IMG/VR virus record: IMGVR_UViG_3300044832_000020 | Span: 1 to 62,107 of that record | Length of the DNA stretch: 62,107 nt | Strand: one strand, 5' to 3' | Origin: a virus | Part shown: positions 1 through 62,107 of the stretch, in pieces | Layout of the letters: the number at the start of each line of letters is the position of its first letter | Numbering within the stretch: the stretch's first letter is position 1 | Program-made: the position numbers and the translations under genes | Notes under the pieces: generated by a model | What the model saw: the letters and a program-made list of their open reading frames with translations, nothing else | Databases searched by the model: none | Told to the model about the DNA's origin: nothing

Positions 1-23
1 AAGGCTGTAGCAGACCCACCAGA
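1..23. repeat. 23-bp direct terminal repeat, identical to 62085..62107
   Basis: aaggctgtagcagacccaccaga read at both window ends. Confidence 0.95.
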
Positions 24-2750: not shown

Positions 2751-2780
2751 CGGCTCCGCTTCCTCTCGATCAGGGATGGG

Positions 2781-2810
2781 GCCGTCACCGGTGACGTTCT
2801 GCCGGGTCGG
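2781..2810. promoter_or_regulatory. copy 4 of the quasi-palindromic motif GCCGTCACCGGTG-N8-10-CCGGGTCGG
   Basis: gccgtcaccggtgacgttctgccgggtcgg lies 31 nt upstream of the primase start, in a low-GC3 spacer. Confidence 0.7.
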
Positions 2811-2814
2811 GGAT

Positions 2815-2840
2815 CTCCCTGCATCTATTCGTGCAGGGGG
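2815..2840. promoter_or_regulatory. hairpin (about 9-bp stem, 8-nt AT-rich loop) upstream of the primase gene
   Basis: ctccctgca tctattcg tgcaggggg read directly. Confidence 0.5.
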
Positions 2841-2927
2841 ACTCGTGGACCAGCGGTGTGCGTCAAGCAGTGACGGTAGGGCGGGTGTTGCCGGGTTTCC
2901 GACGTCAGCCCGTGTCACCTCCCCCGC

Positions 2928-4781: not shown

Positions 4782-5743
4782 CAGCCGACGACCTTCGACT
4801 GCCAGTCAGGCCCGTAGACGCTGGCCGGGTCGATGTTGATGGCTTGCAGGCCAGCGATCTGCTGGGCGGTCGGCGGCGTCGGCTGGCCGCCATTCTGAGC
4901 GGCCTGGGGCTGCTGGCCTTGCTGGGGTGCAGCCATCGTGGTCGGGCCGCCCTGACCCTGCGCCGGTGACGGGCCAGGGTTGCCCTGCTGCGCGGGGTTC
5001 CACTGCTGGTTGCTCGCCGGCGGCTGCGACTGCTGAGCCGACTGCGGCACCGCCCACGGGTCGTTGGTGGGAGCACCCGCCCACGGGTTCGCCTGCTGCT
5101 GCTGCTGTGACTGCGAGCCCCAGGCCCCGTTGTCGACCGGCTGCGACAACGTCTCCTGCTGCCCCGCCCACGGGTCGGCCGGCGGTTCCTGCTGCGCCCA
5201 CTGCGGGCCGGCGCCACCGCTCTGCCAGTCGCTCTGCCGCTGGCCCTGCTGCTGGCCCTGCGCCGGCGCCTGCTGCACCTTCGGCGGCTGATCCAGCTCC
5301 ATCGCCGGCGCCTTGTAGATCGCGCTGTAGAGCTTTGTTGCTGACAGCCCCCTCTGGGCCGGTGGCTTCTCACCGGTGAACGCCAGACCGAGGTAACCGC
5401 CGTACTGCAGGGCCGTCGACCCGTTCGTGGCCAGCTTCACCGCGCCGATCACGGCAGCCATCCGCGACTGGGATTCCGGCTTCTTGCTGCCGGTCAACGG
5501 GACGGTCCGCTTGCCGTCGTCGGTGGGGCTGTCGCGTAGCTCGGTCTGCAGGGTGACGATACTCATCATCTTGGGGTCGCCGTTCGGCCACGTCGACGGC
5601 TGCCCTGCGGTCGCCGTGCCCTCCATGTCGGTCTGCTGGCGGTCGACCAGATCGATCACCATTCCATACACTTTGTCGCCGATCCGGTCGAAGGGAAAGC
5701 TGTTGCCCTCTCCCCCTAGGTCCCAACTAGTCATTGGGGTCAC
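4781..5743 (-). CDS. hypothetical protein with a long Q/P/G-rich low-complexity C-terminal half (320 aa)
   Basis: Track ORF with a globular N-terminal part of about 150 aa, then QQ/PW/GQ-rich repeats. The competing overlapping ORFs are R-rich antisense or offset artefacts. Confidence 0.65.
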   Translation of the reverse strand: MTPMTSWDLGGEGNSFPFDRIGDKVYGMVIDLVDRQQTDMEGTATAGQPSTWPNGDPKMMSIVTLQTELRDSPTDDGKRTVPLTGSKKPESQSRMAAVIGAVKLATNGSTALQYGGYLGLAFTGEKPPAQRGLSATKLYSAIYKAPAMELDQPPKVQQAPAQGQQQGQRQSDWQSGGAGPQWAQQEPPADPWAGQQETLSQPVDNGAWGSQSQQQQQANPWAGAPTNDPWAVPQSAQQSQPPASNQQWNPAQQGNPGPSPAQGQGGPTTMAAPQQGQQPQAAQNGGQPTPPTAQQIAGLQAINIDPASVYGPDWQSKVVG

Positions 5744-14590: not shown

Positions 14591-15772
14591 ATGGTGTCGT
14601 TCCGACGTCTCCCGGCCAGCCGGCAGAACCCGGCTGGCCGGTGGCAGGCGACTGTCGTTCTACCGATCAAGATGCCCAGCGGGAAGTCCAAGCGCGTCAC
14701 CCGGACCCACATCCTGAAAGGCGTCCTGCGCGACTGGGGCCGCGAGCTGGAGGCACGGATCGCCGCCGGCGAGTGGCACGATCCTCGCGGTGCCGAGATC
14801 ACGCTCGATCAATGGCGCGTGACCTGGCTGACCGGCCGGGTCGCGGCGTCGGCGACGCTGGCGAAGGATCAGAGCCACTGGCGCAATCACGTCCAGCCCA
14901 AGTGGGGCGGCTACCCGCTCGCCGAGATCACCCGCACCCGGCTGCATGTCTGGGTCCGGGAGATGATCGACGCCGGACTGGGGGCCTGGACGATCGCCGG
15001 CTCGGTCGCGCACTTGTCGAGCATGCTCGCCGGCGCGGTCGAGGACAAACGTTTACCAGCGAACCCGGCTGCCGGAATCAAACTGCCGCGCGCCGACCCG
15101 AAGCCGGTTTTTTACTGGACCCGGGACGAGGCGAGCGCGCTGCTGCTGGGGCTCGGCGGTGATGATGCGCTGCTGGCGGATATCGGGCTGCACACCGGGT
15201 TGCGGATCGGCGAGCTACTGGGACTGCGCCGGCGGTACGTCGACACCGAGGCCGGGCTGATCCATGTCGTCGGCGTCCAGACGCGGAAGGGGTGGCGCGA
15301 GTACCCGAAATCCCGCAAGAGCCGGCGGCCGGTGCCGGTGCCGGCGCACCTACGCGGCCAGCTCACCGACCGCGTCGACCTGCTCGGCCCGGACGATTAC
15401 GTGTTCACCCCGGATGGCGTCCATGCGTGGGATGACCGCAACTTCGCCCGCCGGGTGTTCGACCCGGCGGTGGCGGCGGCCGGGATCCGGCGCGGCACCG
15501 CTCACGACATGCGCCACACCGCCGCGAGCTGGCTGGCGCAAGGCGGCATGGACCCCGCCAAACTGCAGGCCCTGCTCGGGCACGAGAACTACAAGACGAC
15601 CCAGCAGTACGCCCACCTGGAGCCGGATGCGTTCGATGACGCGCAGGCGATCTGGGCGGCCCGGCCGGTGGATGTGCGTCGAGCGCCCCTTGACGCTGTA
15701 ACGGGTTACAGGGGTGATCGCGTACAGACAGATACCCACGATCTCCCCGAGCCGGGAGGTGAGCACCGGTGA
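14591..15772 (+). CDS. int: tyrosine integrase
   Basis: GLRIGELLGL (Arg), HDMRHTAASW (HxxR) and LLGHENYKTTQQYAHL (His and Tyr) match the tyrosine recombinase catalytic signature. Confidence 0.9.
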   Translation: MVSFRRLPASRQNPAGRWQATVVLPIKMPSGKSKRVTRTHILKGVLRDWGRELEARIAAGEWHDPRGAEITLDQWRVTWLTGRVAASATLAKDQSHWRNHVQPKWGGYPLAEITRTRLHVWVREMIDAGLGAWTIAGSVAHLSSMLAGAVEDKRLPANPAAGIKLPRADPKPVFYWTRDEASALLLGLGGDDALLADIGLHTGLRIGELLGLRRRYVDTEAGLIHVVGVQTRKGWREYPKSRKSRRPVPVPAHLRGQLTDRVDLLGPDDYVFTPDGVHAWDDRNFARRVFDPAVAAAGIRRGTAHDMRHTAASWLAQGGMDPAKLQALLGHENYKTTQQYAHLEPDAFDDAQAIWAARPVDVRRAPLDAVTGYRGDRVQTDTHDLPEPGGEHR

Positions 15773-19038: not shown

Positions 19039-22017
19039 CTACTCGCCGTCGCCGCTGGTCGACGTCGGCCGATCCGAGGCGTCGTTTTCGGTTGGCCGGG
19101 CTGCCCCCGTGGACGGCCCGCCGGCAACATCACCCGGGCTTGAACTGCTGCGGGCGCTGCCGCTGGAGGCAACGTTACGGATCGCCGCGAGCGCCTTCCG
19201 GGCTGCGACATAGGACGCGGCGCTGATCGTGGTCAGGACACCAGCGAACGGCAGCGAGGCGACGATCCGCTTGCTGATCCGCCGGGTCTGGCTGCTGGTG
19301 AATGACAGGCCGGCCGAGATCGCGTGACCAGTCCTGCGGGTCTGCGAGCTGGTGAATCCGACCGTGGCGGATAGCGCCTTGAACACGAGCCGGGTCGCCG
19401 ACAGCGAGCCGGTGAACCCAACAGTCGCGTTGAGCGCCTTGGTGAAGAGGTGAACCGCGACCGTGGCCAGGTTGCCGGTGGACCCGAGTGTCGCGCTGAG
19501 CCCCTTCGAGATCCGGCGCGCCTGGCTGGACGTGAACGACACCGTCGCAGCGAGCTGCTTACCGATCAGCCGGGTCTGCGAGCTGGTGAATCCCAGCCCG
19601 CCGGCGCCGAGCTGCTTGGCGACCCGGCGAGTCTGCGAGCTGGTGAATCCGACGGTCGCGCCGGCCACGATCTTGGCGACCCGGCGAGTCTGCGAGCTGG
19701 TGAATCCGAGGGTCGCGTTGAGCGCCTGCGTGAAGACATGCACGGCACTGGTTGCCAGGCTGCCGGTGAACCCCACAGTCGCGTTGAGCGCCTGGGTGTA
19801 GTGATGCACTGCGAGCGCCGACATGGAGCCGGTAAACGACAACGTCGCGCTGATCCCTTTGGCGACCAGGCGGGCCTGCGAGCTGGTGAACCCGACAGTT
19901 GCCGAGATCCCCTTGGCGACCCGGCGAGTCTGCGAGCTGGTGAACCCGACAGCCGCCGCCATGGCCACCTTGGCGATCGCCCGGGTCTGGCTGCTGGTAA
20001 ACCCCACAGAGCCGGCGAGCCCCTTGACAACACGCCGGCTCTGCGAGCTAGTGAACCCGAGCGTCGCACTGAGCGCCTGGGCGAAAAGGTGGGCGCTGGT
20101 CCGGCTGCCGGTGAACGACAGTGTGGCCGAGATCCCCTTGGCGACGCTCCGGGCCTGCGAGCTGGTCCAGCCGATCGTCGCGCCGGCCACGGTCTTGGCG
20201 GTCCGCCGGGTCTGCGAGCTGGTGAACGACACGGAGCCGGCGCCGAGCTGCTTGGAGGTCCGTAGAGTCTGGCTGCTGGTGAACGACAAGGTCGCGTTGA
20301 GCGCCTGGGTGAAGAGGGTCCCGCCGTGGGTGAGGAACGTAGCGATCGAGCCGGTAAAGCTGAGCGTCGCGTTGATCAGCTTGCTGGTCAGGAAAGCATC
20401 GCTGGACGTGAACGACAGGATGGCGCCGGGCAGCGTCTTGCGGGTCTGGATCGTCAACGGGTCAGAGCCGGACGGGATCAAGTACAGCAGGCCCATGGCC
20501 GCGTGCGAGGCAGCTTGCCCGGTCGCGGTATACGTGTGGCCGGCCTGGGTCACAGCGCCATTGGAGTCGGCGACCTCGATCCCCACGAACGGCGTCCCGG
20601 TGTAAACGGCGTCGACCCGCTCGACCAGTGCCGCGTCGGGCGTGAAGGCGACGGCCGACGTCGTACCGCGAGCACCGAACAGGCCCACGGCCCACCGGTT
20701 GGTGCCGGTCGGGGTCGCCGTCGCCGTGGCGTAGGTCGTGATCGAGCCGGCGCTCCGGGTCGCCCAGGTCAGATTCTCGAACGGGACAGTGGTGTCCACG
20801 CCCGGCCACGAGATCGGCACCCACTGGTTCTTGGTGGAAAACGTCCAGTTGGTCGCGTCGGTGATCGTAACCGTGGTGTCGGTCGACTGCTTGACCTTCC
20901 AGAAGGCGACCATCCGGCAAGATGCCACACCGGTCGCGCCCTCGAACGTCTGGCCGGCATTGGTCCAGCCAGCCGGCGCAGTGATGTTGCCCAGCTCGGC
21001 GTCACCGAGGAAGCCGAAGATCCAGCAGACCTGCCCGTTGGTCGCGCCCGAGACGTCGACCGTGGTGGACGTGCCGGCGGTGCCGGCGACGTTGCCCCCG
21101 ACAGCGGTCCCCACCCACGGGGCGCTGATGCTGCTGCCGGTGCTGGCGAACCCGAGAGTCGCGCTGAGCGGCTGGGTGTAAGCCTGGATGGCGTAGCGAT
21201 CCCCGAGCGTGACCTGGCTGGCCAGGGCCATCGGGGTCGGTGGCAGGAGTGACGAGAATCCGAGGGGCAGAGCCGGCGCGAGTCGATCGACTGCTGCACC
21301 GCCGGCGCCTGCTGGCATGAACTCGACCAGCGCCATGGAGCCGGGGCTGGTTATATTGCAGGTAACTCCCAGAGTGGTCGCGCCCGGGGAGGATGTGAGC
21401 GCTGTCTGCTTGAAAGCGCCCGTCGCGGTCCCATCACCGGGACCATTGTCCCATTGGGCCAATACCGTGCTGGCAGCAGCAGCGGTGAAGGTCGCCGAAC
21501 TAAAGCTGGTGGTGCTCTCATCGACAATGCCAGCAACGTACGAGCCCACAGCCGTCGTGGTGATCGAGGTGGTGTAGGCGTTTGTGGAGGCTTTGCTCAC
21601 AGGCACCGTGGCGCCGGTCGGGGTGGTCATGTCGACCCCGGTCAGCGTCTTGATGTAGATGAACTGGTCGAACCCTCCGGTGGCGTCGACAACCCGAACC
21701 GAGATACTCCCGGGAGCGGAGACGAACTTCCGGTAGGCCACCGTCGAGCACCCGTTGTTAGTTCCCGAGCCGAGCCCCTCCACCTTCGTCCAGGTGGTGG
21801 CGTTGGCGTCGGACGAGTCGGTGACAGTCAGCGCGCTAGGGCTGGAATCCCACCCGAGCGAGGTCATGCAGACCACCACGCTGTTTGCCGGCGGGCTGAA
21901 TGCTCCGGTGGTAAGGGTTCCGGAGGCGCCCGGCATAAGGAGAGGGTTGGTGCCAGACGGGGTGCCGGTACCGGTCCCCGTCGTGGTCGGTGCAGCGGCA
22001 TCCTCAACGATCGCCAT
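19039..22017 (-). CDS. large repeat-containing fibre-like protein (992 aa)
   Basis: N-terminal duplicated beta-sandwich-like regions, then about 25-30 tandem units of the type GFTSSQTRRVAKxxxAxV and FTGSxxxxAVHxFTQALNATxG. SD gggagggg upstream. Confidence 0.75.
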   Translation of the reverse strand: MAIVEDAAAPTTTGTGTGTPSGTNPLLMPGASGTLTTGAFSPPANSVVVCMTSLGWDSSPSALTVTDSSDANATTWTKVEGLGSGTNNGCSTVAYRKFVSAPGSISVRVVDATGGFDQFIYIKTLTGVDMTTPTGATVPVSKASTNAYTTSITTTAVGSYVAGIVDESTTSFSSATFTAAAASTVLAQWDNGPGDGTATGAFKQTALTSSPGATTLGVTCNITSPGSMALVEFMPAGAGGAAVDRLAPALPLGFSSLLPPTPMALASQVTLGDRYAIQAYTQPLSATLGFASTGSSISAPWVGTAVGGNVAGTAGTSTTVDVSGATNGQVCWIFGFLGDAELGNITAPAGWTNAGQTFEGATGVASCRMVAFWKVKQSTDTTVTITDATNWTFSTKNQWVPISWPGVDTTVPFENLTWATRSAGSITTYATATATPTGTNRWAVGLFGARGTTSAVAFTPDAALVERVDAVYTGTPFVGIEVADSNGAVTQAGHTYTATGQAASHAAMGLLYLIPSGSDPLTIQTRKTLPGAILSFTSSDAFLTSKLINATLSFTGSIATFLTHGGTLFTQALNATLSFTSSQTLRTSKQLGAGSVSFTSSQTRRTAKTVAGATIGWTSSQARSVAKGISATLSFTGSRTSAHLFAQALSATLGFTSSQSRRVVKGLAGSVGFTSSQTRAIAKVAMAAAVGFTSSQTRRVAKGISATVGFTSSQARLVAKGISATLSFTGSMSALAVHHYTQALNATVGFTGSLATSAVHVFTQALNATLGFTSSQTRRVAKIVAGATVGFTSSQTRRVAKQLGAGGLGFTSSQTRLIGKQLAATVSFTSSQARRISKGLSATLGSTGNLATVAVHLFTKALNATVGFTGSLSATRLVFKALSATVGFTSSQTRRTGHAISAGLSFTSSQTRRISKRIVASLPFAGVLTTISAASYVAARKALAAIRNVASSGSARSSSSPGDVAGGPSTGAARPTENDASDRPTSTSGDGE
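19230..20470 (-). repeat. in-frame tandem coding repeats (about 51 and 66 nt units)
   Basis: Recurring ctgcgagctggtgaa / ctggctgctggtgaa blocks on the plus strand. Confidence 0.8.
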
Positions 22018-30895: not shown

Positions 30896-33796
30896 CTATC
30901 GCCTTCCGCGTTTGAGGCTTCGAGCCTGCGCACCGTCGAGCGCGCCGGCACGGACGTCGATCAGCCCGGTCAGCTTGCCCTCGTTGAGATTGACGTCGAC
31001 CCGTGAGACGGAGGACGCGATCGCGGCCAGGTCATCCGGGTGGAGACGTCGCGAACCGCCGCCCATCATCGCGAGCTGGGCCTGATTGAACACCGCTTCC
31101 GGCTTGCTGGTCTCGTTGTAGCCCAGCTTGCCGGGCATCAGCCAGCCGCCATCCTTGTAACCGCCGGGCCGGTCCCAGCCACGCGGCGCGACACCGTACC
31201 GCGCGTTGGCGTACTTGATCGCCGCGTAGATATTGGCGAACGGGTCGAGGATGCCGCGCGACCGGTACGGGCCGGCGTAGGCGTTGAACGTGCCCGGGAT
31301 GGTCTGCATCAACCCCTGGGACGGGTGGCCGGCGCGAGCGTTGGAGTCGGTCAGGTTGATCGCGTTGGGATTGCCCCCGCTCTCCTGATTCATGCGACGA
31401 AGCAACGAGTTGATCCAGATCGCCGGGGCACCGGCCGCCTGTAGCGCCTGCAAGGCAACAGCGCGCCAGCGCGCCACGCCAGAGCCGCCGGCGGTGGGCA
31501 GACTGTTGCTACCGATGCCGCCGATGATGCCGCCGATCGCGCTACCAACGGAACTGAGCGCGCTGAGCGCCTTCTTAGGCAGGCTGGCCAGTGAGATCAA
31601 GCCCTTGTTGACGATGCGCCCGAGCGCCGTCGGCATACTGCCGAAGATCTTGCCGATCGCCTTGGCCATGTTCACCGAGCCCAGCCCTTTGAATAGGCCC
31701 ACAGCCAGGGCGCTACCGAGGTTGGCCATCACCTTTGACGGCGATGCAATGCCGAAGAACTTTCTGACGTTGGCGATGATCGGGTCCACGACCTGCGTCT
31801 TGATCCAGGCGCCGACTCCCTTCATCTTGTTCCAGATCCCGGACAGCAGCCCACCGATGACGCTTTGGCCCATGCTGTAGAGCCACTTGCCGGCGGTGCC
31901 GAACTGACCGACCACGCGGCGTACGACGTTGGTCCAGACCCAGGAGCCGATCGTGCTGGCGATATTCCAGAGGCCGGACCTGAGCCCGATAAGGACTTGC
32001 CGGCCTCGCTGGTACAGCCACGAGCCGGCGGAGACGAACACCCGCCACACGGGCTGGACAACGTACTGGTTCGTCCAGGTGTAGAGGGTGCGAGCGATCG
32101 CCCAGATACCGTTCTTCAGCCCGGTAACGACCTGCGAGCCCCGCTGATACAGCCAGGTGCCGGCCTTGACGAACGCGCGGATATTGGGCTGGATGACCCA
32201 GTTATTCATCCAGGTACCGATGGATTTGGCGACAGCCCAGACGCCGCTGAGGAAGCCGGTCATGAGTTTCCGGCCGTGGATGACCAGCCAGACGCCGGCG
32301 TACAGCCAGGGCGCCACGACCTTGACCACCGGGGCGCGCAGGATCCACGCACCGACACCCTTGGCGACAGCCCAGATCCCGGCCTTGAACCCCTCGAATA
32401 GATCCTGGCCCTTGCGGAGCAGCAGTTTCGCGACGTTGCCGACCTTGGCCGGCAAGCCGACGAAGAAGTTTTTAACGGTGTTCGCCATGCCACCGAAGGT
32501 TTTAACCGTCCAGGTGCTGATCGCCTTCCACTTCCAGATCACCAGCGCGACCAGCGCGGCGATCGCGACCACGACCCAGGCGATCGGTCCCATCGCGATG
32601 ACCCAGGCGACAGCCATCCGGCCGGCCTGGATGATCGACTGCACGCCCATGATTGCCCAGCCGGCCACGATCCTGACCACGGCCCACGAGTGAGCGATGG
32701 CGCCGGTGATCGCGTCGCGCTTGAGTAGCAGCCAGATCGCGGCGGTCTCAGCACCGGAGACGGTGGCGGCCACACCCATGGCGATCAAGTGCGGGATGAA
32801 CACGGCGGCGATCACCAGGCTGGCGATCGCGAGCGGGGTCTTGAACTCCCACAGGAATTTGGCCGCAGCAGACAGCGGCGGCAGCGTCGCCGTGAACGCG
32901 CCGAAGAGATCCCGGATGACGCCGACGAACGCTCCCCCGACACCCTTCCCACTGCGCATCTGGCCGATAAAGGTGTTGATCGTTGTGCCGACCTTGGTCA
33001 GGGTCGGCAGCAGCGCGCCGCCGATGGCCAGCTTGACGCCGAGCATGGTCGCCGCGAACTGCCGCTGCTGGGTCCGGTAGGCGACGATCGCGGACAGAGA
33101 CTTGCCGCTCATCGTGGTGCCGAGCTTGTCTGACTGCGCCTCCAGCGCCCTGATCCCGGCCGAGCCCTTGTTGAGGAACGGGATCATGTCGACCCCGGAC
33201 CGGCCAAAGATCTTCATCGCCAGGGCCGTTTTCTGCACGCCTGGCGGCATGCTCTTGAACCTGTCCGCGATCTTCGGCAACAGCGCGGCCCACGGCAGCA
33301 CCTTGCCGTGGGCGTCCTGGTAGTTGAACCCGAGCAGGGCGACCATCTTGGCGGTGGCCTTGGTGTTGCCCTCGGTGTTCGAGAGCGCCTTACTGCCCAG
33401 CCGCAAGCCCTTGGTCAGGGTGTCGACCGAGATCCCCGACAGCACCGCCGCCTCCCGTAGTCGGCTCATTTGCTCGGCCGTGCCGCCAGCGATGCGCTGC
33501 AGTTTGATGACCTCAATGCCGGTGTCCTGAAAAGTCTGGATCGAAGACTTGGCGATACCGATGGCGCCGAGCACGGAGAACGCGGCGATCGCGGGAGCGA
33601 TCATCCCCTTGATGCCGGAGAACGTGTTGGACAGCCCCTTGTGGATCCGGCCGGTTGACTTGGTGACGTTGCCCTCAGCGCCCTTGATGGACGACCCGAT
33701 CGCTCGGCCGGCCTTGCCTGATTCAGCGCCTGCGGTCTTGAATGCGGGAGACAGTTTGTCGACGCCCAGCAGAGTGAAAACCATCGTGTTGCTCAT
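30896..33796 (-). CDS. tape measure protein with C-terminal lytic transglycosylase (SLT-like) domain
   Basis: 966 aa with central hydrophobic/W-rich repeats. NQESGGNPNAINLTDSNARAGHPSQGLMQTIPGTF is an SLT-type motif. Confidence 0.85.
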   Translation of the reverse strand: MSNTMVFTLLGVDKLSPAFKTAGAESGKAGRAIGSSIKGAEGNVTKSTGRIHKGLSNTFSGIKGMIAPAIAAFSVLGAIGIAKSSIQTFQDTGIEVIKLQRIAGGTAEQMSRLREAAVLSGISVDTLTKGLRLGSKALSNTEGNTKATAKMVALLGFNYQDAHGKVLPWAALLPKIADRFKSMPPGVQKTALAMKIFGRSGVDMIPFLNKGSAGIRALEAQSDKLGTTMSGKSLSAIVAYRTQQRQFAATMLGVKLAIGGALLPTLTKVGTTINTFIGQMRSGKGVGGAFVGVIRDLFGAFTATLPPLSAAAKFLWEFKTPLAIASLVIAAVFIPHLIAMGVAATVSGAETAAIWLLLKRDAITGAIAHSWAVVRIVAGWAIMGVQSIIQAGRMAVAWVIAMGPIAWVVVAIAALVALVIWKWKAISTWTVKTFGGMANTVKNFFVGLPAKVGNVAKLLLRKGQDLFEGFKAGIWAVAKGVGAWILRAPVVKVVAPWLYAGVWLVIHGRKLMTGFLSGVWAVAKSIGTWMNNWVIQPNIRAFVKAGTWLYQRGSQVVTGLKNGIWAIARTLYTWTNQYVVQPVWRVFVSAGSWLYQRGRQVLIGLRSGLWNIASTIGSWVWTNVVRRVVGQFGTAGKWLYSMGQSVIGGLLSGIWNKMKGVGAWIKTQVVDPIIANVRKFFGIASPSKVMANLGSALAVGLFKGLGSVNMAKAIGKIFGSMPTALGRIVNKGLISLASLPKKALSALSSVGSAIGGIIGGIGSNSLPTAGGSGVARWRAVALQALQAAGAPAIWINSLLRRMNQESGGNPNAINLTDSNARAGHPSQGLMQTIPGTFNAYAGPYRSRGILDPFANIYAAIKYANARYGVAPRGWDRPGGYKDGGWLMPGKLGYNETSKPEAVFNQAQLAMMGGGSRRLHPDDLAAIASSVSRVDVNLNEGKLTGLIDVRAGALDGAQARSLKRGRR

Positions 33797-37787: not shown

Positions 37788-38141
37788 TCATTTTGCAGCC
37801 GCTTTCTTGGCGGCAGGCGCCGCCGTCTTGTGCGCCTCGGCCGTCTTGGCGGCGGGCTTCTCCGCCGGCTTCTCAGCCGGCTTGGGCTCTGGCTTCGCCT
37901 CAGCCTTGGCGGCAGGCTCCGCCGTCTTGCGCGCGTCAGCTCGGCCGGTGTCGCGCGTCCGGCTCGACGTGTCCTCGCTGACCTCGTACTGGACGGTGAT
38001 CGGCTCGAACAACTGCGGATACAGATCCAGCAGCTCATGCCCGGCGCGAACGCGGGTCACGCCTGCGGTAAGCAAGGTCGGTACGCCGTCGATCATCGCC
38101 ATGGCGTTTTCCTTGCAAATGTAGATATCGCCCTTTGCCAT
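37788..38141 (-). CDS. hypothetical head-module protein with A/K/P/E-rich tail (117 aa)
   Basis: Track ORF with C-terminal AEPAAKAEAKPEPKPAEKPAEKPAAK. Confidence 0.55.
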   Translation of the reverse strand: MAKGDIYICKENAMAMIDGVPTLLTAGVTRVRAGHELLDLYPQLFEPITVQYEVSEDTSSRTRDTGRADARKTAEPAAKAEAKPEPKPAEKPAEKPAAKTAEAHKTAAPAAKKAAAK

Positions 38142-38156
38142 GGTTGAAAACCTCTC

Positions 38157-38660
38157 TTATCGCAGCGGGGCGGGCATGGCCGTCGCCACACGGCGGTCGT
38201 CGCTGCGTAGCAGGTAGGACACCGAAACGATCTGCGTGGCGGCCGTGCTGGCAATGTTGAGACTGATCCAGCCCGTCGTAGAGGACAGCGCCTCCGACGG
38301 AACGGGGATCGCGATCAACATCTGGTTGACCGCGTTACCGGTCAGCGTGATGGTGGCAGCGTTCGTCTGGGACACAGCGGTCCAGACCTCGGAGCCAAGC
38401 AGGGACGGGGCTCCGGTCTTGGTGTAATAGTTGCTGATCGCAACGAGGTTGGTCGACGTGCCGGCGGCTGACAGCGTGTGCTGTTGGAGGGTCAGTACCG
38501 GGTCCTGGGTCGTCGTGCCGACGCCCTTGTTGACCAGGATCGTCACGTTCTCGACGCCCTGCATGTTCAAACGCTTGCCGGTAACGGCGCCGGAAAGCAG
38601 GTCCACGGGGGCCGAACCGATCGAGATATCGATGACTTCGCCGATTCCTATACCTGACAT
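38157..38660 (-). CDS. hypothetical head-associated protein (167 aa)
   Basis: ATG 38660 (MSGIGIGEVIDIS...) with SD aaggaaag. Confidence 0.55.
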   Translation of the reverse strand: MSGIGIGEVIDISIGSAPVDLLSGAVTGKRLNMQGVENVTILVNKGVGTTTQDPVLTLQQHTLSAAGTSTNLVAISNYYTKTGAPSLLGSEVWTAVSQTNAATITLTGNAVNQMLIAIPVPSEALSSTTGWISLNIASTAATQIVSVSYLLRSDDRRVATAMPAPLR

Positions 38661-38730
38661 GACACTTTCCTTTACTGGGTTGGTGATCCAGGATCGGGGC
38701 GGCTCGCGATGAGCCACCCCGATCGTCCGG

Positions 38731-41178
38731 TCAGGAGGTCCGCTGCAGAACCTGGAAGGCGGCGTCGGCCAGGATCTTCGAGTTGTTGCGCCAGATCGCG
38801 TAGAGCCCGCGCTGGCCGGTCGGCATGCCGAGACCGGGAGCAGCAGCGACGTTGAAGATCTGCGGGATCAGCTCGACGCTCATGCCGAGCCGGTCCACGA
38901 TCAGGAACTGGGAGAAGTCCCCGAAGATCATCCAGCGGTCGCCGACGTTGCCGGGGCCGGTGAGCATCGCCGACGCCTCGTAGGCCGGGTAACCCAGCAG
39001 CTCCGGGGGCTGCCCGAATCCAACGCGCTGCCAGAGCGCCGAGCCGCCGGTGGTGTCGAGCTGTCGGAGCAGGTTGTAGGTGCTCTTGTTGGCCAGGAAG
39101 GTGGCGCCCGGCCGGAAGCGCGGGTTCAACCCGGACTCCAGCGAGTAGACGTTGGCCATCAGCACCAGGGCGCCGGCGGTGCCGACGTTCTGCGAGCTGT
39201 TGAGCGTCTTGACCACACCGTTGGGCTGCACGCCGATGCCGGTGCCGTTGAGGAAGGAGGTTCCCTCTTCCACGTTCTTGGCGTCAGCCAGCAGACGGAA
39301 CATCTCCGACTGCAGGCCGGTCCAGTCCTGGTCGACCTCGTACGAGAAGGGCACGAAGCCCTGGACGCGAGTCGGGGTCAGGGTCGGCTGTGCCAGGGCC
39401 GGCGAGTTGTCGGTGGCCGCTGCGGCTTCAGCAGCACGGCTGACCGTGATGCCGGCTGAGGTGACGCCCTGCCACTGCTGGCCGGTGATCGTCTCGATGC
39501 GGGCGACCTGACGGATCGGGCTGAGCACGGCGGTCGAGGTGAGGATCACCGTCGGGTCGAGGGTGAACGGCACCGCGAACGCGCCGGACGCGCCGGCACC
39601 CATCGCCAGGGCGCGTTGTTCCTCGCTGGTCAGCGTGTTGGTGCTGAGCGCCAGGCACGCCTTGCCGAACGCGCGCTGATAGGTCGGCGAGCCGGTGACG
39701 ATGATCCGCCGGGCGAACGTGCCCTGCTCATCGTCAACGAAGTCCAGCAGGTACTGGATCCGGTCGGCGGCCTCAGAGTGCTTGACGCCCCGGCCAGGGA
39801 ATCGGGTCTGCTCAACGATCCGCAGAGCAGCGTCCCGCATCAGCGACGGGACCTCGTCAATGCTGCGGGCCTGCTGCCGGATCGCGGCCAGGTCGTAGAT
39901 GTTGTCCGGGCGGCGAACGACGTTCGGCACCTGCGGGGTGACCTGCTCGCCGGCCTGGCGGGCAGCCATGTCAGCAAGGCGGGCCTTGCGGCGCTGGTCA
40001 GCGGCAATCGCCGTCTCGTTGCCGTCGAACTCGGTGTTAAGCGAGTCCCACTCGGTCTGGGTCTCACCCGGCAGGGTGGCCCCGTTGAATTCGTTGTCGA
40101 TCTCCTGCAGGCGTACGCGGATCTCCGACTGGCGAGCTTCGCGCTCCTCCGAGGTCAGAGGGTCGAGGTCAGGCATGGGGGTTGGTCCTTCCGGGCGCGG
40201 TGACGACGAATCGACCCGGGCTGCACGCGCAGGGGGTCGCTTGATTGCCTCGGAGTGCCGTTCGGCCGGTGCGTCCTCGGAGTGCTCGGTGAGCGAGTCC
40301 AGGCTCGACGCCGGGGTCGGCGGGTCGTCGGATACTGCGACGGCAACAGGGGCGGTGATGGTCGCGGGCTCGGGTTCCGAGGTGCGAAGCGTCACCGTTT
40401 CGATGGTGCCGGTGGCGCCGGCGGCGGCGTCGGGGATCGCGGGTTCGGCAGATACCGGAGTGCGAATCTCTTTCGTGCGCGCTAGCGCCTGGTCATAGAG
40501 TACCGGGTCGCGCCGGCGAAGGCGCTCATAGAAATCGTCGGTGCTGGACCGGAGGCTACCGGCCGAGCGCAGACCGGCGTCAGCAGCCGGGTTGGCGGGG
40601 AACGCGGTCGGCCCGAACTCGATCAGCCGAACCTCCCGGATGGTGCGCTGCGGGAGATCAGTCCACTTGTCATTGCCCGGGTCCTCCCAGGTGTCGGCTT
40701 CCGGGTCCTCGACCCAGTCATCGGCCATCACGTTGAACCGGAACGACTGCCCGTAGGCGCCAGCGCGGAGACCGCTCACGATGATCTGCGGCACGCCCTC
40801 GAACAACGGCACCTCGGCGTACGGGCCGGTGGCGTCTTCCTGCAGCATTTCGGGCAGGCCCAGCGGCCGGTCGCCCATCCCCGGGTCGAACCCGTGATCG
40901 AGCAGCACGCGCACCGGCGACTGGTTCGAGCGGTTGTTGATCGTCCGCTTGAACGCGCCTGGCGCGATCCGCTCGATGAACTTGCCCTCCCAGAATGAGT
41001 TGATCTCGTACCAGTCGTTGAACGTGGAGAAATGCCCCGTCATGGTGCCGGGGCTGTTGTCCGGGTTCGCGTCGGCGACAGCAGCCCGCAGCTCGGCCAC
41101 CAGTGCGGCGTCGCGGCAGACCTCGATACCGTCGAGCCTGGCCGGCGGCGAGTCGCGGAAAGTCGGGATAGCGGTCAT
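38731..41178 (-). CDS. prohead protease / scaffold-like linker / HK97-fold major capsid protein fusion (815 aa)
   Basis: N-terminus GKFIERIAPGAFKRT...LLDHG...GQSFRF resembles an HK97-family prohead protease. The middle is an acidic coiled linker. The C-terminal 300 aa resemble an HK97-type capsid. Confidence 0.75.
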   Translation of the reverse strand: MTAIPTFRDSPPARLDGIEVCRDAALVAELRAAVADANPDNSPGTMTGHFSTFNDWYEINSFWEGKFIERIAPGAFKRTINNRSNQSPVRVLLDHGFDPGMGDRPLGLPEMLQEDATGPYAEVPLFEGVPQIIVSGLRAGAYGQSFRFNVMADDWVEDPEADTWEDPGNDKWTDLPQRTIREVRLIEFGPTAFPANPAADAGLRSAGSLRSSTDDFYERLRRRDPVLYDQALARTKEIRTPVSAEPAIPDAAAGATGTIETVTLRTSEPEPATITAPVAVAVSDDPPTPASSLDSLTEHSEDAPAERHSEAIKRPPARAARVDSSSPRPEGPTPMPDLDPLTSEEREARQSEIRVRLQEIDNEFNGATLPGETQTEWDSLNTEFDGNETAIAADQRRKARLADMAARQAGEQVTPQVPNVVRRPDNIYDLAAIRQQARSIDEVPSLMRDAALRIVEQTRFPGRGVKHSEAADRIQYLLDFVDDEQGTFARRIIVTGSPTYQRAFGKACLALSTNTLTSEEQRALAMGAGASGAFAVPFTLDPTVILTSTAVLSPIRQVARIETITGQQWQGVTSAGITVSRAAEAAAATDNSPALAQPTLTPTRVQGFVPFSYEVDQDWTGLQSEMFRLLADAKNVEEGTSFLNGTGIGVQPNGVVKTLNSSQNVGTAGALVLMANVYSLESGLNPRFRPGATFLANKSTYNLLRQLDTTGGSALWQRVGFGQPPELLGYPAYEASAMLTGPGNVGDRWMIFGDFSQFLIVDRLGMSVELIPQIFNVAAAPGLGMPTGQRGLYAIWRNNSKILADAAFQVLQRTS

Positions 41179-42578
41179 GGTTTAGCCCCTCCTACTGGTA
41201 GCTGGGGTGGTTGAGCTGGCCCGGTGGGAGGCGCGACGGGTGGTGCGTTGGGGTCGACGGGTGGCTGGAGCTGCACGCTGGTCAGCCCGGTATGGACCAA
41301 CAGCGTCCAGTCGCTGGCCAGCACGGCTTTGACTGCTGAGTCGGCGGTGAACCCGCCATTGACGAGCTGGGTGATCGTGACCGCCTGCGAGGACTGGATC
41401 ACGGCGGCGTCCTTGGCGTCCTCGCGCAGAAACGGGATCCCGGTCGTGTCGTACCAGAGGTTGGCGCCGTTCGGCGGGAAGAGGATCGGCTCCAGCGACG
41501 CGGCGGCGTTCGACCACAGGTGCTGCATGGTCCCGTCACCGAAGCGACGTCGAGCGGAGGCGAAGTTGCCGGCGTTGAGCGCGCTGCCCTGCAGCCCCTC
41601 GGAGAAGCCGACCCAGCTCGGCGGTACGCCGGCGGCGGCGGCCAGCCGGGATTCGCCCTTGCCCTGGGTGGCGGAGAAGTCCAGCTCTTTGAAGTCCTTG
41701 CCGATGACCTCGACGTCGGCGCCGCCGCCGAGATAGAGGGTCTTGTAGGCGTTCCAGACGCCCTGGTGCTCCTCTTCCATCAGCGATTTGAACTGCCGTA
41801 CCTGGTCGATCGTCATGGACGGGTCGAACTTGATCGACAGGTTGGGGGTAGCGGCGTTCTGCATGAACTTCCGCTTGTGCAGAACCATGCCGTCATCAGC
41901 GGCGGCTTCGGCGATCACCGGGGTGATCCAGCTCATCCCGAGAAAGTTGTTGTTCGGGTCGGGGATCGGCGCGTAGTGCGCGACCTCGTTGGGCAGCAGG
42001 AAGACTGCCCGATCGGTCTCCCTCTTGTTGCCGCCCGCCCAGTAGATGTAGCCAGCCACCTCGACGTCGCCGGCTTCGCTCGGGTGATCCTCGTCCTCTT
42101 GCGAGCCCATGACGATCGTCACCCACTCGGGGCGTAGCCGGTTGAGTCGGTCGACCTTGGTCGGGCCGAGACCGCGCCGAACGCGCCGGGTGTAGGAGTT
42201 GCCGGCCTGGCTGACGTCGACCTCCATCCGGGCCAGTAGATCGCCAGTGACGCCGCCGGCCCAGGGCCGTTCGAGGATCCCCAGCTCGGGACTGCCGAAC
42301 AGGTCGGTGGGCCGGCCGCTCCTGAACCGGGTCCACTGGAAGCGCGCCTGGCTGAAAACCTGCATCCGGGCCATGACGAGCGCGAACACCGGCCCGTTGG
42401 AGTGGTACGCCTGCGAGCTGGTCCGGATGATCGACTCTTCATCCTGGTTGCCCCAGGTCGTGTTGAGCAGCGGGTACGAGCTGCCCGCAAACGAGAACAT
42501 GTCGACCCAGTCCTGGAACCCCAGAGAAGGGTCGGTCCGTCCCTCGGTGCGGCCGATCAGTGATTCCCAGACCTTCAT
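41175..42578 (-). CDS. portal protein (HK97-family-like, 467 aa)
   Basis: Size and position between terminase and protease-capsid; ATGA overlaps. Confidence 0.75.
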   Translation of the reverse strand: MKVWESLIGRTEGRTDPSLGFQDWVDMFSFAGSSYPLLNTTWGNQDEESIIRTSSQAYHSNGPVFALVMARMQVFSQARFQWTRFRSGRPTDLFGSPELGILERPWAGGVTGDLLARMEVDVSQAGNSYTRRVRRGLGPTKVDRLNRLRPEWVTIVMGSQEDEDHPSEAGDVEVAGYIYWAGGNKRETDRAVFLLPNEVAHYAPIPDPNNNFLGMSWITPVIAEAAADDGMVLHKRKFMQNAATPNLSIKFDPSMTIDQVRQFKSLMEEEHQGVWNAYKTLYLGGGADVEVIGKDFKELDFSATQGKGESRLAAAAGVPPSWVGFSEGLQGSALNAGNFASARRRFGDGTMQHLWSNAAASLEPILFPPNGANLWYDTTGIPFLREDAKDAAVIQSSQAVTITQLVNGGFTADSAVKAVLASDWTLLVHTGLTSVQLQPPVDPNAPPVAPPTGPAQPPQLPVGGAKP

Positions 42579-42739
42579 GGGCGCTTCACCGGCCTAGTGG
42601 CGCGTTCGAGCGAGCCGATGCCGGCGGCGCCGAGCAGTAGGCCGGCCACGATGAACCCGGCCCAGTACGCGAGCAGACCCGCACCGATGACGAGACACGC
42701 GGCAGCGCAGAGCAACAGCACGAGCGCGTACCAAGTCAT
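42575..42739 (-). CDS. small two-helix membrane protein (54 aa) between terminase and portal
   Basis: MTWYALVLLLCAAACLVIGAGLLAYWAGFIVAGLLLGAAGIGSL. Start overlaps the TerL stop (TAATG) and its stop overlaps the portal start (ATGA). Confidence 0.5.
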   Translation of the reverse strand: MTWYALVLLLCAAACLVIGAGLLAYWAGFIVAGLLLGAAGIGSLERATRPVKRP

Positions 42740-44424
42740 TAGCCCTCCCCGTAGATGAAGAACGGATCCTTCGGTGGTTCTTCGGCTTCCAGCACGGCCA
42801 GGCGCCCGTCGATCGACATAAGCAGCGTCACCATGCCGTCGATCCGCTTCCCGGTCTTGCCGCGATCCGGCTTCACCGGTCGTACCCGGTCGCCGTCGTC
42901 GCGGGGTGATTTCGCCTCCAAGCTGTCCGCCATCCATGTCGAGACGGGGTTGCCGCCGTGGGCCAGCTCCTGGGATTTGAGTAGCCGGGAAAGTTCCTTC
43001 ATCGGCAGCGTCATGCGGTCGAACGTCGTGGCGGACTCATTCATCTCCAGCCCGGTCCGTTTCTGGATCTCTTGCCGGACGGGCTCGCCGGACCACCGGT
43101 CGTAGACGATGCCGGCGATCGAGTAGCGCGCGTGGTCGATCTCGATCGCCGAATAGATCAGGTCGTAATCGATCGTGTTGCCATCGGTCAGGGTGACCCA
43201 GCCGGCGTCGCACCACAGCGAGAACTTGCCGGCGGTGTGTTTGTCGAGCAGTGGCACGACCGACTCGGGTGCCCAGTACCGCCAGATCACGGTGCCGTCC
43301 TCGAACAACAGCGACCACGCGGTCAGGTCCAGCTTGGACGAGAGGTCGAGACCGGCCCAGCACTTGCGCCCTTCGAGCTGAGGGGCGAGCCAGTCGGGCT
43401 CGGGCGCGATGCCGAGATCGCCGATGTTGTCGTTCCACTCGGCGATCGACAACCAGCGGGTCGTCTGCTGCACCCATTGGCTGAGCCGGAACTGCCGGAA
43501 CTTGTTCTCTTTGGTCCGGTCGTTCTTGGCTTCGACCGCTTCCTCCCGCAGTACCTGCAGGGACAGGAAGTCACCGAGCGCCGGGTTGCCCAGCTTCCAG
43601 TTGCGTTCGTTCCACGGGTCCGCGTCGGCCGGGACGTTGCGGATGTAAACGAACGTGTGGGGGTTCCGGCTCGGGTCCTCAGCGATCCGGATCATCTCGT
43701 CGTGCTCGGCCTTGGCGAACGATGAATCGTCGTCGCCGGGCGTCGTGACGCCGACCATGAGCGGCTGGGTGCGAGCGCCGAAGCCGGTTCGCAGCGCTGA
43801 CCAGAGATCCCCGTTCGGCTGGGTGATGACCTCATCGAACGCGATCCCGTGCGGGTTCTGTCCGAGGTTGCCGGATGCGTCGGCGGCGATCACTTGATAG
43901 AACGACCCGGTTCGTTCGTCCACGATCCGCTTGCCTTGCTTGTAGATCGTCAACCGCTGAGACAGGATCGGCGACAGCTCCACCATCCGGCGCGCGACCT
44001 CGTAAACGATCGACGCTTGGTCCCTGTCTTTGGCGCACCCGTACAGCTCGGCGCCCTCTTCGCCGTCGGCGACCAGCAGAAACAGCATGATGCCGGCGAG
44101 CAGCTCGGATTTCCCGTTCTTGCGGCCCAGCTCGATCCACGCGATCCGGTACCGGCGGACGTACGTCTCCGACTCGGGGTCCCAGCGGATCGTCCCGAAC
44201 AACGGCGCGACGATATCCCGTTTCTGCCACAACGCCAGCGCGAACGCTTTCCGCGCCCACCTGGCCTTGGTGTGGACGAGCACTTCGGCGAAGAACTTGA
44301 CGACATGCGTGACGCGCGGCGCGCAGTGATGATCGCCGACCTTGCGACATGTCGTCCCGTCGAGCGCGTAGCCGCAAGGCGGTAGGCGCCGCTGTACCGC
44401 CTTCGAGGGGGTTCTAGTTGTCAT
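42739..44424 (-). CDS. terL: terminase large subunit
   Basis: 561 aa. LGRKNGKSELLAGI (Walker A-like), FDEV (Walker B-like) and a C-terminal nuclease-type region. Confidence 0.8.
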   Translation of the reverse strand: MTTRTPSKAVQRRLPPCGYALDGTTCRKVGDHHCAPRVTHVVKFFAEVLVHTKARWARKAFALALWQKRDIVAPLFGTIRWDPESETYVRRYRIAWIELGRKNGKSELLAGIMLFLLVADGEEGAELYGCAKDRDQASIVYEVARRMVELSPILSQRLTIYKQGKRIVDERTGSFYQVIAADASGNLGQNPHGIAFDEVITQPNGDLWSALRTGFGARTQPLMVGVTTPGDDDSSFAKAEHDEMIRIAEDPSRNPHTFVYIRNVPADADPWNERNWKLGNPALGDFLSLQVLREEAVEAKNDRTKENKFRQFRLSQWVQQTTRWLSIAEWNDNIGDLGIAPEPDWLAPQLEGRKCWAGLDLSSKLDLTAWSLLFEDGTVIWRYWAPESVVPLLDKHTAGKFSLWCDAGWVTLTDGNTIDYDLIYSAIEIDHARYSIAGIVYDRWSGEPVRQEIQKRTGLEMNESATTFDRMTLPMKELSRLLKSQELAHGGNPVSTWMADSLEAKSPRDDGDRVRPVKPDRGKTGKRIDGMVTLLMSIDGRLAVLEAEEPPKDPFFIYGEG

Positions 44425-45102: not shown

Positions 45103-45215
45103 TCACCCAAAATAGTTGCTTACTTCAGTGGTCGGGGGCTTGTTTTCTCTGGGCGGGCGCGTAACTTGAGTGGTGTAGTGCCCCGCAAGTTCAACCCCCA
45201 CCCGAGGAGCCCGCC
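45103..45215 (+). promoter_or_regulatory. promoter/operator/leader cassette, copy 1
   Basis: tcacccaaaatagttgc ... cttgtttt N16-17 taactt ... ggtgtagtgccccgcaagtt ... ggag ... ATG. Confidence 0.7.
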
Positions 45216-61463: not shown

Positions 61464-61898
61464 TTAAAAGGGTGGGTCGCCGCTGTAGTCGCCAACTTTC
61501 GGCGCGGCGTGGACGGTCTGGATCGAGGGCAGCGGGAGCACCCAGCAGGCATGCTCGGCAACGACGTCGTACGGCGGGAGTCGACCTGGCCGGCGGGGAG
61601 TGCCGGCAGGGTGGCCACGGATCTCGAAATGGCCGCGCTGGTCGAGCTGCAGGAACCCGGCGGTCCAGCGCAGGCAGTACGTGCGGCGCCCCAGGATCAG
61701 CGCTGCCGCTTCCCCGCGCGAGCTGAGTGGGTTCGTATCGCAGACGGCTTCACCAGCGATCAGGTCAGCGTCAAGGCCAACGATGACGCGGTGGTTGCAC
61801 TTGCGACAGCGCCGGACCCTGGCGTGCCGGGTGACGCCGTCGACGTCCCAGAGCCCGGAGGCTTCGAGGTGTTTCTGGAGCCAGGTGGGGATGGTCAC
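61464..61898 (-). CDS. hypothetical protein (144 aa)
   Basis: Track ORF. Its GTG overlaps a TGA that terminates the frame continuing the primase ORF across the junction. Confidence 0.6.
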   Translation of the reverse strand: MTIPTWLQKHLEASGLWDVDGVTRHARVRRCRKCNHRVIVGLDADLIAGEAVCDTNPLSSRGEAAALILGRRTYCLRWTAGFLQLDQRGHFEIRGHPAGTPRRPGRLPPYDVVAEHACWVLPLPSIQTVHAAPKVGDYSGDPPF

Positions 61899-62107
61899 GG
61901 CGCCTCACCTCGCGCTCGCTGCAGGCATGGATCACACCAGAGCGAGTTGGGGGCGGCGGGCGCTGCCTGGCAGGCCGCACAGGGCGATGGTGGGTCTGGT
62001 GGTTCTGGTGGGTCTGTCCCAACGCTATTCACGGGAACACGTATACGTCCCATATCGTGAGACGAGGTATCGATCTGAGCTAATAAGGCTGTAGCAGACC
62101 CACCAGA
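61895..62107 (-). CDS. C-terminal tail of the primase-helicase ORF (only if the ends are joined): DPPEPPDPP linker plus CxxC...CxxC zinc-ribbon
   Basis: The frame phase matches after removing one 23-bp copy. There is no stop until TGA 61895..61897. Sequence PCAACQAAPAAPNSLWCDPCLQRARGEAP is GC3-rich. Confidence 0.55.
   Translation of the reverse strand, partial: SGGSATALLAQIDTSSHDMGRIRVPVNSVGTDPPEPPDPPSPCAACQAAPAAPNSLWCDPCLQRARGEAP
61988..62016. repeat. arm of the 29-bp perfect inverted repeat (partner 11..39); encodes GGSGGSGGS on the minus strand at the partner arm
   Basis: tggtgggtctggtggttctggtgggtctg read directly. Confidence 0.95.

Follow-up and report, generated by a model that had tools for sequence, protein, structure and literature searches.

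Genomic context of the initiator gene

The window (the whole stretch of DNA analyzed, 62,107 nucleotides) is the genome of a temperate siphovirus-like phage of 62 kb, with a tyrosine integrase and the head and tail genes listed in Table 1; a 992-aa ORF (19039..22017, minus strand) had no PHROG match. Nucleotide searches of GenBank phages in the "near" and "distant" modes gave no match to the window. Its last 23 bases repeat the first 23 exactly, which yields a circle of 62084 bp, and the locus studied here lies across this junction on the minus strand. It comprises a gene for a 1035-aa protein with the Prim-Pol/SF3-helicase/winged-helix architecture (below, the initiator), an inverted pair of short-repeat arrays embedded in the 3' part of that gene, and a small gene downstream. 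The initiator stop codon TGA (61895..61897) overlaps the GTG start of the downstream gene (61898) in the sequence GTGA. The downstream gene, which encodes a CRKC motif, is translationally coupled to the initiator and also adjoins the element in the related loci L001 and L058.

Table 1. Features of the window considered in this study, in order of position.
Feature	Position	Strand	Remarks
Spacer, last 10 of 78 bp	1..10	.	continues from 62084 over the circular junction
Gene-proximal iteron arm	11..39	-	three 9-bp units; minus strand reads TGGTGGGTCTGGTGGTTCTGGTGGGTCTG; translated as GGSGGSGGS (residues about 961-969)
Initiator, main body	40..2918	-	residues 1-959; likely start GTG 2918, alternative TTG 2750
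Winged-helix domain, predicted	about 54..230	-	residues about 897-955; directly precedes the first arm
Prim-Pol domain	about 2241..2729	-	PF09250, residues 64-226
Tyrosine integrase	14591..15772	+	
Tape measure protein	30896..33796	-	
Fused protease/major-capsid protein	38731..41178	-	
Portal	41175..42578	-	
Large terminase	42739..44424	-	
Downstream gene, 144 aa	61464..61898	-	phrog_16156 only; GTG start overlaps the initiator stop (GTGA)
C-terminal CxxC...CxxC tail and stop TGA	61895..61987	-	SPCAACQAAPAAPNSLWCDPCLQRARGEAP; pLDDT 72-86
Gene-distal iteron arm	61988..62016	+	perfect reverse complement of 11..39; minus-strand translation DPPEPPDPP (residues 996-1004)
Spacer, first 68 of 78 bp	62017..62084	.	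presumed unwinding/priming region; half adjoining the distal arm conserved with L001
Assembly overlap	62085..62107	.	exact repeat of 1..23; adds no sequence to the circle

Inverted repeat arrays around a spacer of lower GC content

When the ends are joined, the two 29-bp arms face each other as exact reverse complements (29 of 29 positions), each composed of three 9-bp units in the order GGTGGGTCT/GGTGGTTCT/GGTGGGTCT and a single further base at either end. The 27-mer formed by the three units occurs at two places only, both of them arms, with none expected from 100 shuffles. The 9-mer GGTGGKTCT has eight matches in the window against 0.85 expected: the six arm units, one in the duplicated window end and one elsewhere. 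When gapless inverted repeats with spacers of 20-260 bp were scored around the entire circle, the pair of arms came first with 29 and the runner-up reached 13; the pair is the sole strong inverted repeat and repeat cluster in the genome. The hairpin energy of the element as DNA is -44.8 kcal/mol (z = -10). The exact arm sequence had no match in a search of IMG/VR.

The spacer between the arms measures 78 bp and has 48.7% GC (51% AT), compared to 66.4% GC in the genome; 14 of the 62084 windows of 78 bp have a lower GC content. The genome minimum for windows of this size, 47.4%, falls inside the spacer and is equalled at 38083 and 38617. An earlier note on this DNA had described two perfect arms of three units each, inverted across the join around a core of 78 bp, and all of this agrees with our measurements. 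Its further statement that the core is AT-rich and the lowest in GC stands in so far as the minimum lies there, but that minimum is tied with the two other places and the core is AT-rich only relative to the rest of the genome. The two tied stretches (38083..38160 and 38617..38694) adjoin, on the downstream side, the 3' end of the capsid/protease gene. Cumulative GC skew has its minimum at 5727 and its maximum at 45180, and the site of the element is not singled out by it.

Reading frame, codon usage and the encoded peptide

A single minus-strand frame runs through the whole element, giving the C-terminal sequence ...LWQIEAARPK-SGGSGGSGGS-ATALLAQIDTSSHDMGRIRVPVNSVGT-DPPEPPDPP-SPCAACQAAPAAPNSLWCDPCLQRARGEAP*, where the element encodes residues 960-1004. 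Among the six frames the spacer is open in the used one only, and flipping it introduces stop codons. The 46 codons of the element have a GC3 of 0.33, compared to 0.857 in ten large genes of the genome. They include TCT, GGT, CCA, TTA and ATA; in the ten large genes GGT makes up 13% of glycine codons, TCT 3.1% of serine codons and CCA 7.6% of proline codons.

These results uphold what had been claimed for the coding side: the whole structure lies within the Prim-Pol/helicase frame, the arms are read as GGSGGSGGS and DPPEPPDPP, the GGT, TCT and CCA codons are rare, and the frame continues into a CxxC...CxxC tail to end in the GTGA overlap. Judged from codon usage, the low GC3 and the rare codons support the proposed constraint on the element at the level of DNA. 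At the level of the peptide, a G-run repeat is translated into glycine and the complementary C-run into proline, and both arms yield disorder-prone peptides.

Domains of the initiator protein

The sole Pfam match in the initiator is to the Prim-Pol family PF09250 (31.1 bits, cutoff 22.8). Pfam has no family for the winged-helix region, the zinc-ribbon tail or the downstream gene, and NCBIfam gave no match in the C-terminal half of the initiator. The protein also has an SF3/D5-like helicase domain with the Walker A motif GSGKT. Its AlphaFold model (mean pLDDT 82) resembled, in Foldseek searches with E-values of 4e-8 to 1e-6, MPXV E5, vaccinia D5, the C-terminal region (CTR) of NrS-1, AsfvPrimPol and the pRN1 Prim-Pol; according to the model, the protein is an initiator composed of an AEP primase and an SF3 helicase, together with a winged helix. 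The winged helix was assigned from the secondary structure of this model only (helices 901-909 and 913-927, strands 936-944 and 948-955). It presumably binds the iterons, if pRN1 and P4 alpha (PMC4234260) are taken as analogues.

Directly after the confidently modelled winged helix, the pLDDT falls below 50 across residues 960-1002, that is, across the part encoded by the arms and the spacer. This is the sole low-confidence stretch near the C-terminus, and the peptide is predicted to be disordered.

Distribution of the element among relatives

A protein search with the initiator identified 2485 homologues, and 136 loci were fetched from bacterial genomes and IMG/VR. The end of the winged helix was located in 90 of the 136, the window counted, and 89 phage, prophage and plasmid loci could be scored. 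For each locus we determined the best gapless inverted repeat between -60 and +500 bp from the winged-helix end, considering a score of at least 18 as strong. Sixty two of the 89 loci had a strong inverted repeat after the winged helix; in equal-sized upstream controls the mean score was 9.2 and the maximum 14 (n=257), and downstream controls had a mean of 9.7 and a score of at least 18 in one of 225. The other 27 loci had no strong gapless repeat, some of them being truncated or having imperfect arms.

In the 62 loci the arms consist of about three tandem units of 8-10 bp each, the median spacer length is 83.5 bp, and the GC content of the spacer is below that of the locus in 56 cases (0.58 vs 0.69). 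The repeat units vary from locus to locus (for example, TGCAGGGTT, TGCCGGGAC, TGCGGGGAY, GGGGGGAGT and CTGACAAC), while the two arms of a locus always match; both arms change together and so evolve in concert. A comparison by eye of winged-helix residues with repeat sequences produced no clear code.

Fifty of the 62 elements follow the stop codon, often by only 1-90 bp, and are non-coding, as in the plasmid pWTY27. Two have the stop codon within the element, and in ten, one of which is the window, the reading frame of the gene runs on through the element. The read-through loci cluster among the nearest relatives of the window, and in five of the ten, two or more CxxC motifs are encoded past the distal arm. 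Among the closest homologues the tail keeps its layout with another repeat: that of P0001 reads GDSGDSGDS...ESPVSPESP, that of P0004 GDSGDSGDS...ESPESPESP, those of P0009 and P0011 AGFAGFAG...NPANPANPA and that of P0026 AGTAGTAGT...VPAVPAVPA, each being followed by CxxC motifs. The linker peptide changes with the repeat (GGS/DPP, GDS/ESP, AGF/NPA, AGT/VPA), each of these pairs being the product of one DNA repeat and its reverse complement, both translated. The CxxC..CxxC tail is conserved in relatives with only about 50% overall identity, and this conservation argues that the zinc-ribbon extension is translated and selected.

Two motifs were seen at fixed positions in some spacers (including those of L005, L006, L012, L013, L032, L035, L060, L064, L066 and L078). 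Ten of the 62 loci have YTACRNRNNGT in mid-spacer, against a background of 0.003 per spacer. ACGCGNG is found on the gene strand in 14 of the 62 spacers, in most cases at a distance of 10-15 nt from the gene-proximal arm, and on the opposite strand in 18 of them (background 0.036). These motifs may be priming or host-factor sites; neither of them is present in the spacer of the window. Two genomes harbor two paralogous elements each: Actinoplanes sp. CA-142083 with units TGCCGGGAC (L005) and TGCAGGGTT (L023), and Salinispora cortesiana with units CCGGGTTT (L032) and TGCAGGGTT (L035). If replicon incompatibility is avoided through the divergence of repeats, such differences between paralogues of the same genome are what one would expect.

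Comparison with the closest relative

The closest relative, L001, is a JGI metagenome contig whose initiator protein is 92% identical to that of the window. The same two positions differ between the two in all six units (GG/GT/GG in the window vs AC in L001), and the middle unit of the distal arm of L001 has one further mismatch. Identity is 92-97% in the flanking gene and in the zinc-ribbon tail; in the latter there are three synonymous changes and one non-synonymous change. Arms that differ in concert between flanks of such identity point to a constraint on the DNA repeat, in agreement with the codon usage. The array unit may be described as a 7-bp core TCTGGTG with two variable bases and would be a candidate initiator-binding repeat.

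The two halves of the spacer differ in their similarity to L001: identity is only about 55% in the half adjoining the gene-proximal arm (62050..62084 and 1..10 vs 4181..4215 of L001) and 92-97% in the other half. The winged helix (54..230, minus strand) is nearly identical in both, with four amino-acid differences just before the KSLGMW helix (RSTAGVGVVSK in the window vs RSQSGVGVITK in L001). Since the winged helix and the zinc ribbon are nearly identical and the repeats differ, either the protein does not read the two variable bases, or specificity is determined elsewhere.

The element as a candidate replication origin

The earlier note had read the element as iterons plus an unwinding region, that is, as a replication origin. 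This reading is strongly supported by the homology of the protein to RepA of pWTY27, by the inverted repeats in 62 of the 89 loci and by the predicted disorder of the encoded linker. Weighing against it are the GC skew, which does not mark the site, the moderate AT content of the spacer, the near identity of winged helix and zinc ribbon in the window and L001 despite their different repeats, the lack in the window of the spacer motifs that many relatives share, and the 27 loci scored without a strong gapless repeat. Taking these comparisons together, the element is very probably the replication origin of the phage, of the pWTY27 type, with two inverted arrays flanking a 78-bp spacer of lower GC content. 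By analogy with that plasmid we infer initiator binding, melting, priming and origin activity in the phage of the window.

The Prim-Pol/SF3/winged-helix protein would bind the repeats on both arms, probably through its winged-helix domain, and multimerise, possibly on an extruded stem-loop. The multimerised initiator, with its SF3 domain assembling, would then melt the spacer; the helicase domain would load at the melted site, the Prim-Pol domain would lay the first primers, and replication would run both ways. In the clade of the window the reading frame extends across the putative origin into a tether, predicted to be disordered, that carries the small CxxC..CxxC tail. This read-through, followed by the zinc-ribbon tail, is the clade-specific part, and the extension over the putative origin is probably tolerable because both arms translate to disorder-prone peptides.

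Alternative explanations

The arrays could be initiator-binding sites with a mainly regulatory function, the origin being elsewhere; through them the rep gene could regulate itself, or they could control the downstream genes as a roadblock or an operator. The translational coupling of the next gene through GTGA and a GC skew that does not mark the site are consistent with this possibility, which te Poele et al. also raise for the RepAM sites inside repAM (PMC2440964). However, the homologous region of pWTY27 is required in cis for replication (PMC3583192), the lower-GC spacer in 56 of 62 loci suits an unwinding element better than an operator, and the genome has no other repeat cluster. We consider a mainly regulatory function improbable; the arrays may have a regulatory role alongside that of an origin.

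An element acting at the RNA level, namely an mRNA stem that pauses or terminates transcription or translation and sets the ratio of a short to a zinc-ribbon-bearing protein, would account for the very stable stem and for the existence of relatives both with and without the extension. It is a still weaker candidate and would be quite surprising, as the element lies beyond the stop codon in 50 of the 62 loci and there has no effect on rep translation, and a simple hairpin does not need tandem units in its arms. Moreover, a search of Rfam with the L001 homologue gave a chance sub-threshold match to an miRNA hairpin only, and in pWTY27 termination is left to a hairpin of its own, located ahead of the iterons.

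The perfect 29-bp terminal inverted repeats, the total length of 136 bp and a composition unlike that of the host gene are reminiscent of a MITE-like mobile element inserted in frame. We rejected such an insertion as hardly credible: the element is present as a single copy in the genome with no target-site duplication, and as 136 is not a multiple of three, its absence would put the tail in another frame. It also has a fixed position in dozens of diverged relatives, with lineage-specific arm sequences.

GGSGGSGGS is a classic synthetic linker. An engineered linker of this standard kind, or an assembly fold-back at contig ends joined by 23 bp only and breaking exactly in the element, has next to no credence, because L001, from another metagenome, runs unbroken through the homologous element, an independent Logan contig from another run (L139) is identical in sequence over the distal arm, 58 bp of the spacer and the downstream genes, and complete chromosomes of cultured actinomycetes share the architecture (for example, Actinoplanes sp. 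CA-142083, L023). The ends of the window and the 1..60 end of L139 both fall within the inverted-repeat element. That two independent assemblies break there is to be expected of a perfect 29-bp inverted repeat in a de Bruijn graph, and such repeats have probably fragmented short-read assemblies.

Implications of a putative translated origin

Replication origins of actinobacteriophages are largely unmapped, and the window provides a concrete candidate. It also suggests a rule by which further candidates can be found: short repeats in inverted arrays are to be sought where the winged-helix part of a Prim-Pol/RepA-type gene ends. This rule would reach dozens of relatives among phages, prophages and integrative elements. 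The read-through clade would be a natural example of an array of DNA-binding sites dictating a protein linker in two frames, Gly/Ser in one arm and Pro in the other. The elements are, in addition, candidate minimal replicons for actinomycete vectors.

Whether the read-through is functional rather than merely tolerated is a separate matter. The joint proposal, comprising the tether, the CxxC module, the coupling and a specificity switch, seems to us rather unlikely, if less so than any of the alternatives above. If it were correct, the origin would encode the flexible tether of its own initiator, and the CxxC..CxxC tail would be a new origin- or template-recognition module comparable to the zinc-binding domain of primases. 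Transcription and translation over the 29-bp stem would couple the synthesis of the initiator to the opening of the origin, and this coupling would result in cis-preferential loading. Finally, concerted GG to AC switches in the six units between close relatives would create new replicon specificities and at the same time rewrite the linker peptide.

Comparison with known systems

The origin of phage lambda lies inside gene O, in the part encoding the inter-domain linker, and consists of iterons and an AT-richer region. Four direct iterons are located there beside the AT-rich region, and the host helicase is recruited through the P protein. The likeness to lambda drawn in the earlier note holds for the position, since in the window too the putative origin is in the part of the initiator gene that encodes a linker, here the one joining the winged helix to the zinc-ribbon tail. 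It goes no further than analogy: the initiator is not homologous to O (Phage_rep_O of Pfam had no match in it), lambda has direct iterons on one side instead of two inverted arrays flanking a core, and it uses a host helicase via P, whereas the helicase of the window phage is within the initiator.

In SaPIs two iteron sets flank an AT-rich region. The SaPI Rep and SCCmec Cch2 systems have a self-loading helicase whose iterons, which it recognises, come shortly after the helicase gene (Ubeda 2007, as cited in PMC7581432). They differ from the window in their helicase families, their Firmicutes hosts and their non-coding origins.

A further comparison is with the actinomycete mobile element pMEA300. 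Its RepAM binds multiple identical 8-bp repeats forming a hairpin inside its own 3' coding end, and a pC194-like nick site and rolling-circle replication were proposed for it (te Poele et al. 2006, as reviewed in PMC2440964). The window shares with it the repeats and the hairpin inside the 3' coding end of the initiator gene. RepAM belongs to the DUF3631 family (PF12307, defined in PMC3218068), to which the initiator had no match at E-values up to 5, and homology of the two proteins was rejected on this ground.

For Prim-Pol/SF3/winged-helix initiators, Berkner et al. 2014 proposed that the protein assembles on a stem-loop located immediately 3' of the gene encoding it, the systems concerned being pRN1 ORF904 and the Bordetella phage BIP-1 (PMC4234260); the scheme of binding, melting and priming outlined above for the window follows their model. 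ORF904 and the BIP-1 protein have the AEP primase, the SF3 helicase and the C-terminal winged helix in the same order as the window protein. Their origin is likewise a large stem-loop that follows the replication gene, but it does not code for protein and, unlike that of the window, was described without iteron structure; the hosts are archaeal or proteobacterial, and sequence homology of the origins to the window is not evident.

A literature search, with most subscription journals outside its coverage, found no origin of this arrangement described for an actinophage Prim-Pol/helicase, the precedents being plasmid, AICE and archaeal only. The earlier note likewise named no description for an actinophage Prim-Pol/helicase; at the level of the protein family, however, pWTY27 and pRN1/BIP-1 are precedents, in addition to RepAM of pMEA300.

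The closest system is pWTY27 of Streptomyces sp. Y27, the top match in a tblastn search of plasmids (35.6% identity, 95% query coverage, E 6e-63). In BLASTP the initiator is 36% identical to pWTY27 RepA over 454 aa (E 3e-70), the aligned residues 486-934 extending from the P-loop into the winged helix. A Prim-Pol gene, repB, is located just upstream of pWTY27 repA, and the Prim-Pol of the window has distant similarity to RepB (E 0.001). The two plasmid genes are co-transcribed (Wang et al. 2012, PMC3583192). To replicate in S. lividans, pWTY27 needs repA and repB together with the 300 bp that follow repA immediately on its 3' side; RepA binds this region specifically, its footprint being a long inverted repeat of GTGGGAAC/TTCCCAC units with an unprotected loop; propagation of the locus in linear form indicates bidirectional replication (PMC3583192).

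The plasmid sequence follows the same plan as the window, with inverted arrays of 7-9-bp G-rich units around a less GC-rich loop, starting within about 50 bp of the winged-helix end, and the window unit (G)GTGGGTC(T) resembles GTGGGAAC. Prim-Pol and RepA are separate proteins in pWTY27, whereas the window encodes a fused RepB-RepA. The iterons of pWTY27, 5+5 copies, are non-coding and come after a terminator hairpin, whereas those of the window are translated and followed by the zinc-ribbon tail; and pWTY27 is a plasmid/AICE, the window a 62-kb temperate phage. Measured against the features that define the plasmid origin, the window has the RepA homology, the Prim-Pol and the inverted arrays, and departs solely in that the element is not non-coding.

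In summary, on the basis of these alignments the window element is the counterpart of the experimentally characterised pWTY27 origin, accompanied by a fused RepB-RepA protein. Such an origin follows a classical principle, and one homologue is already characterised; what is new is that the putative origin is translated, with a Gly/Pro linker specific to the lineage, that a zinc ribbon extends the protein beyond it, and that a rule for locating candidate actinophage origins holds across the family.
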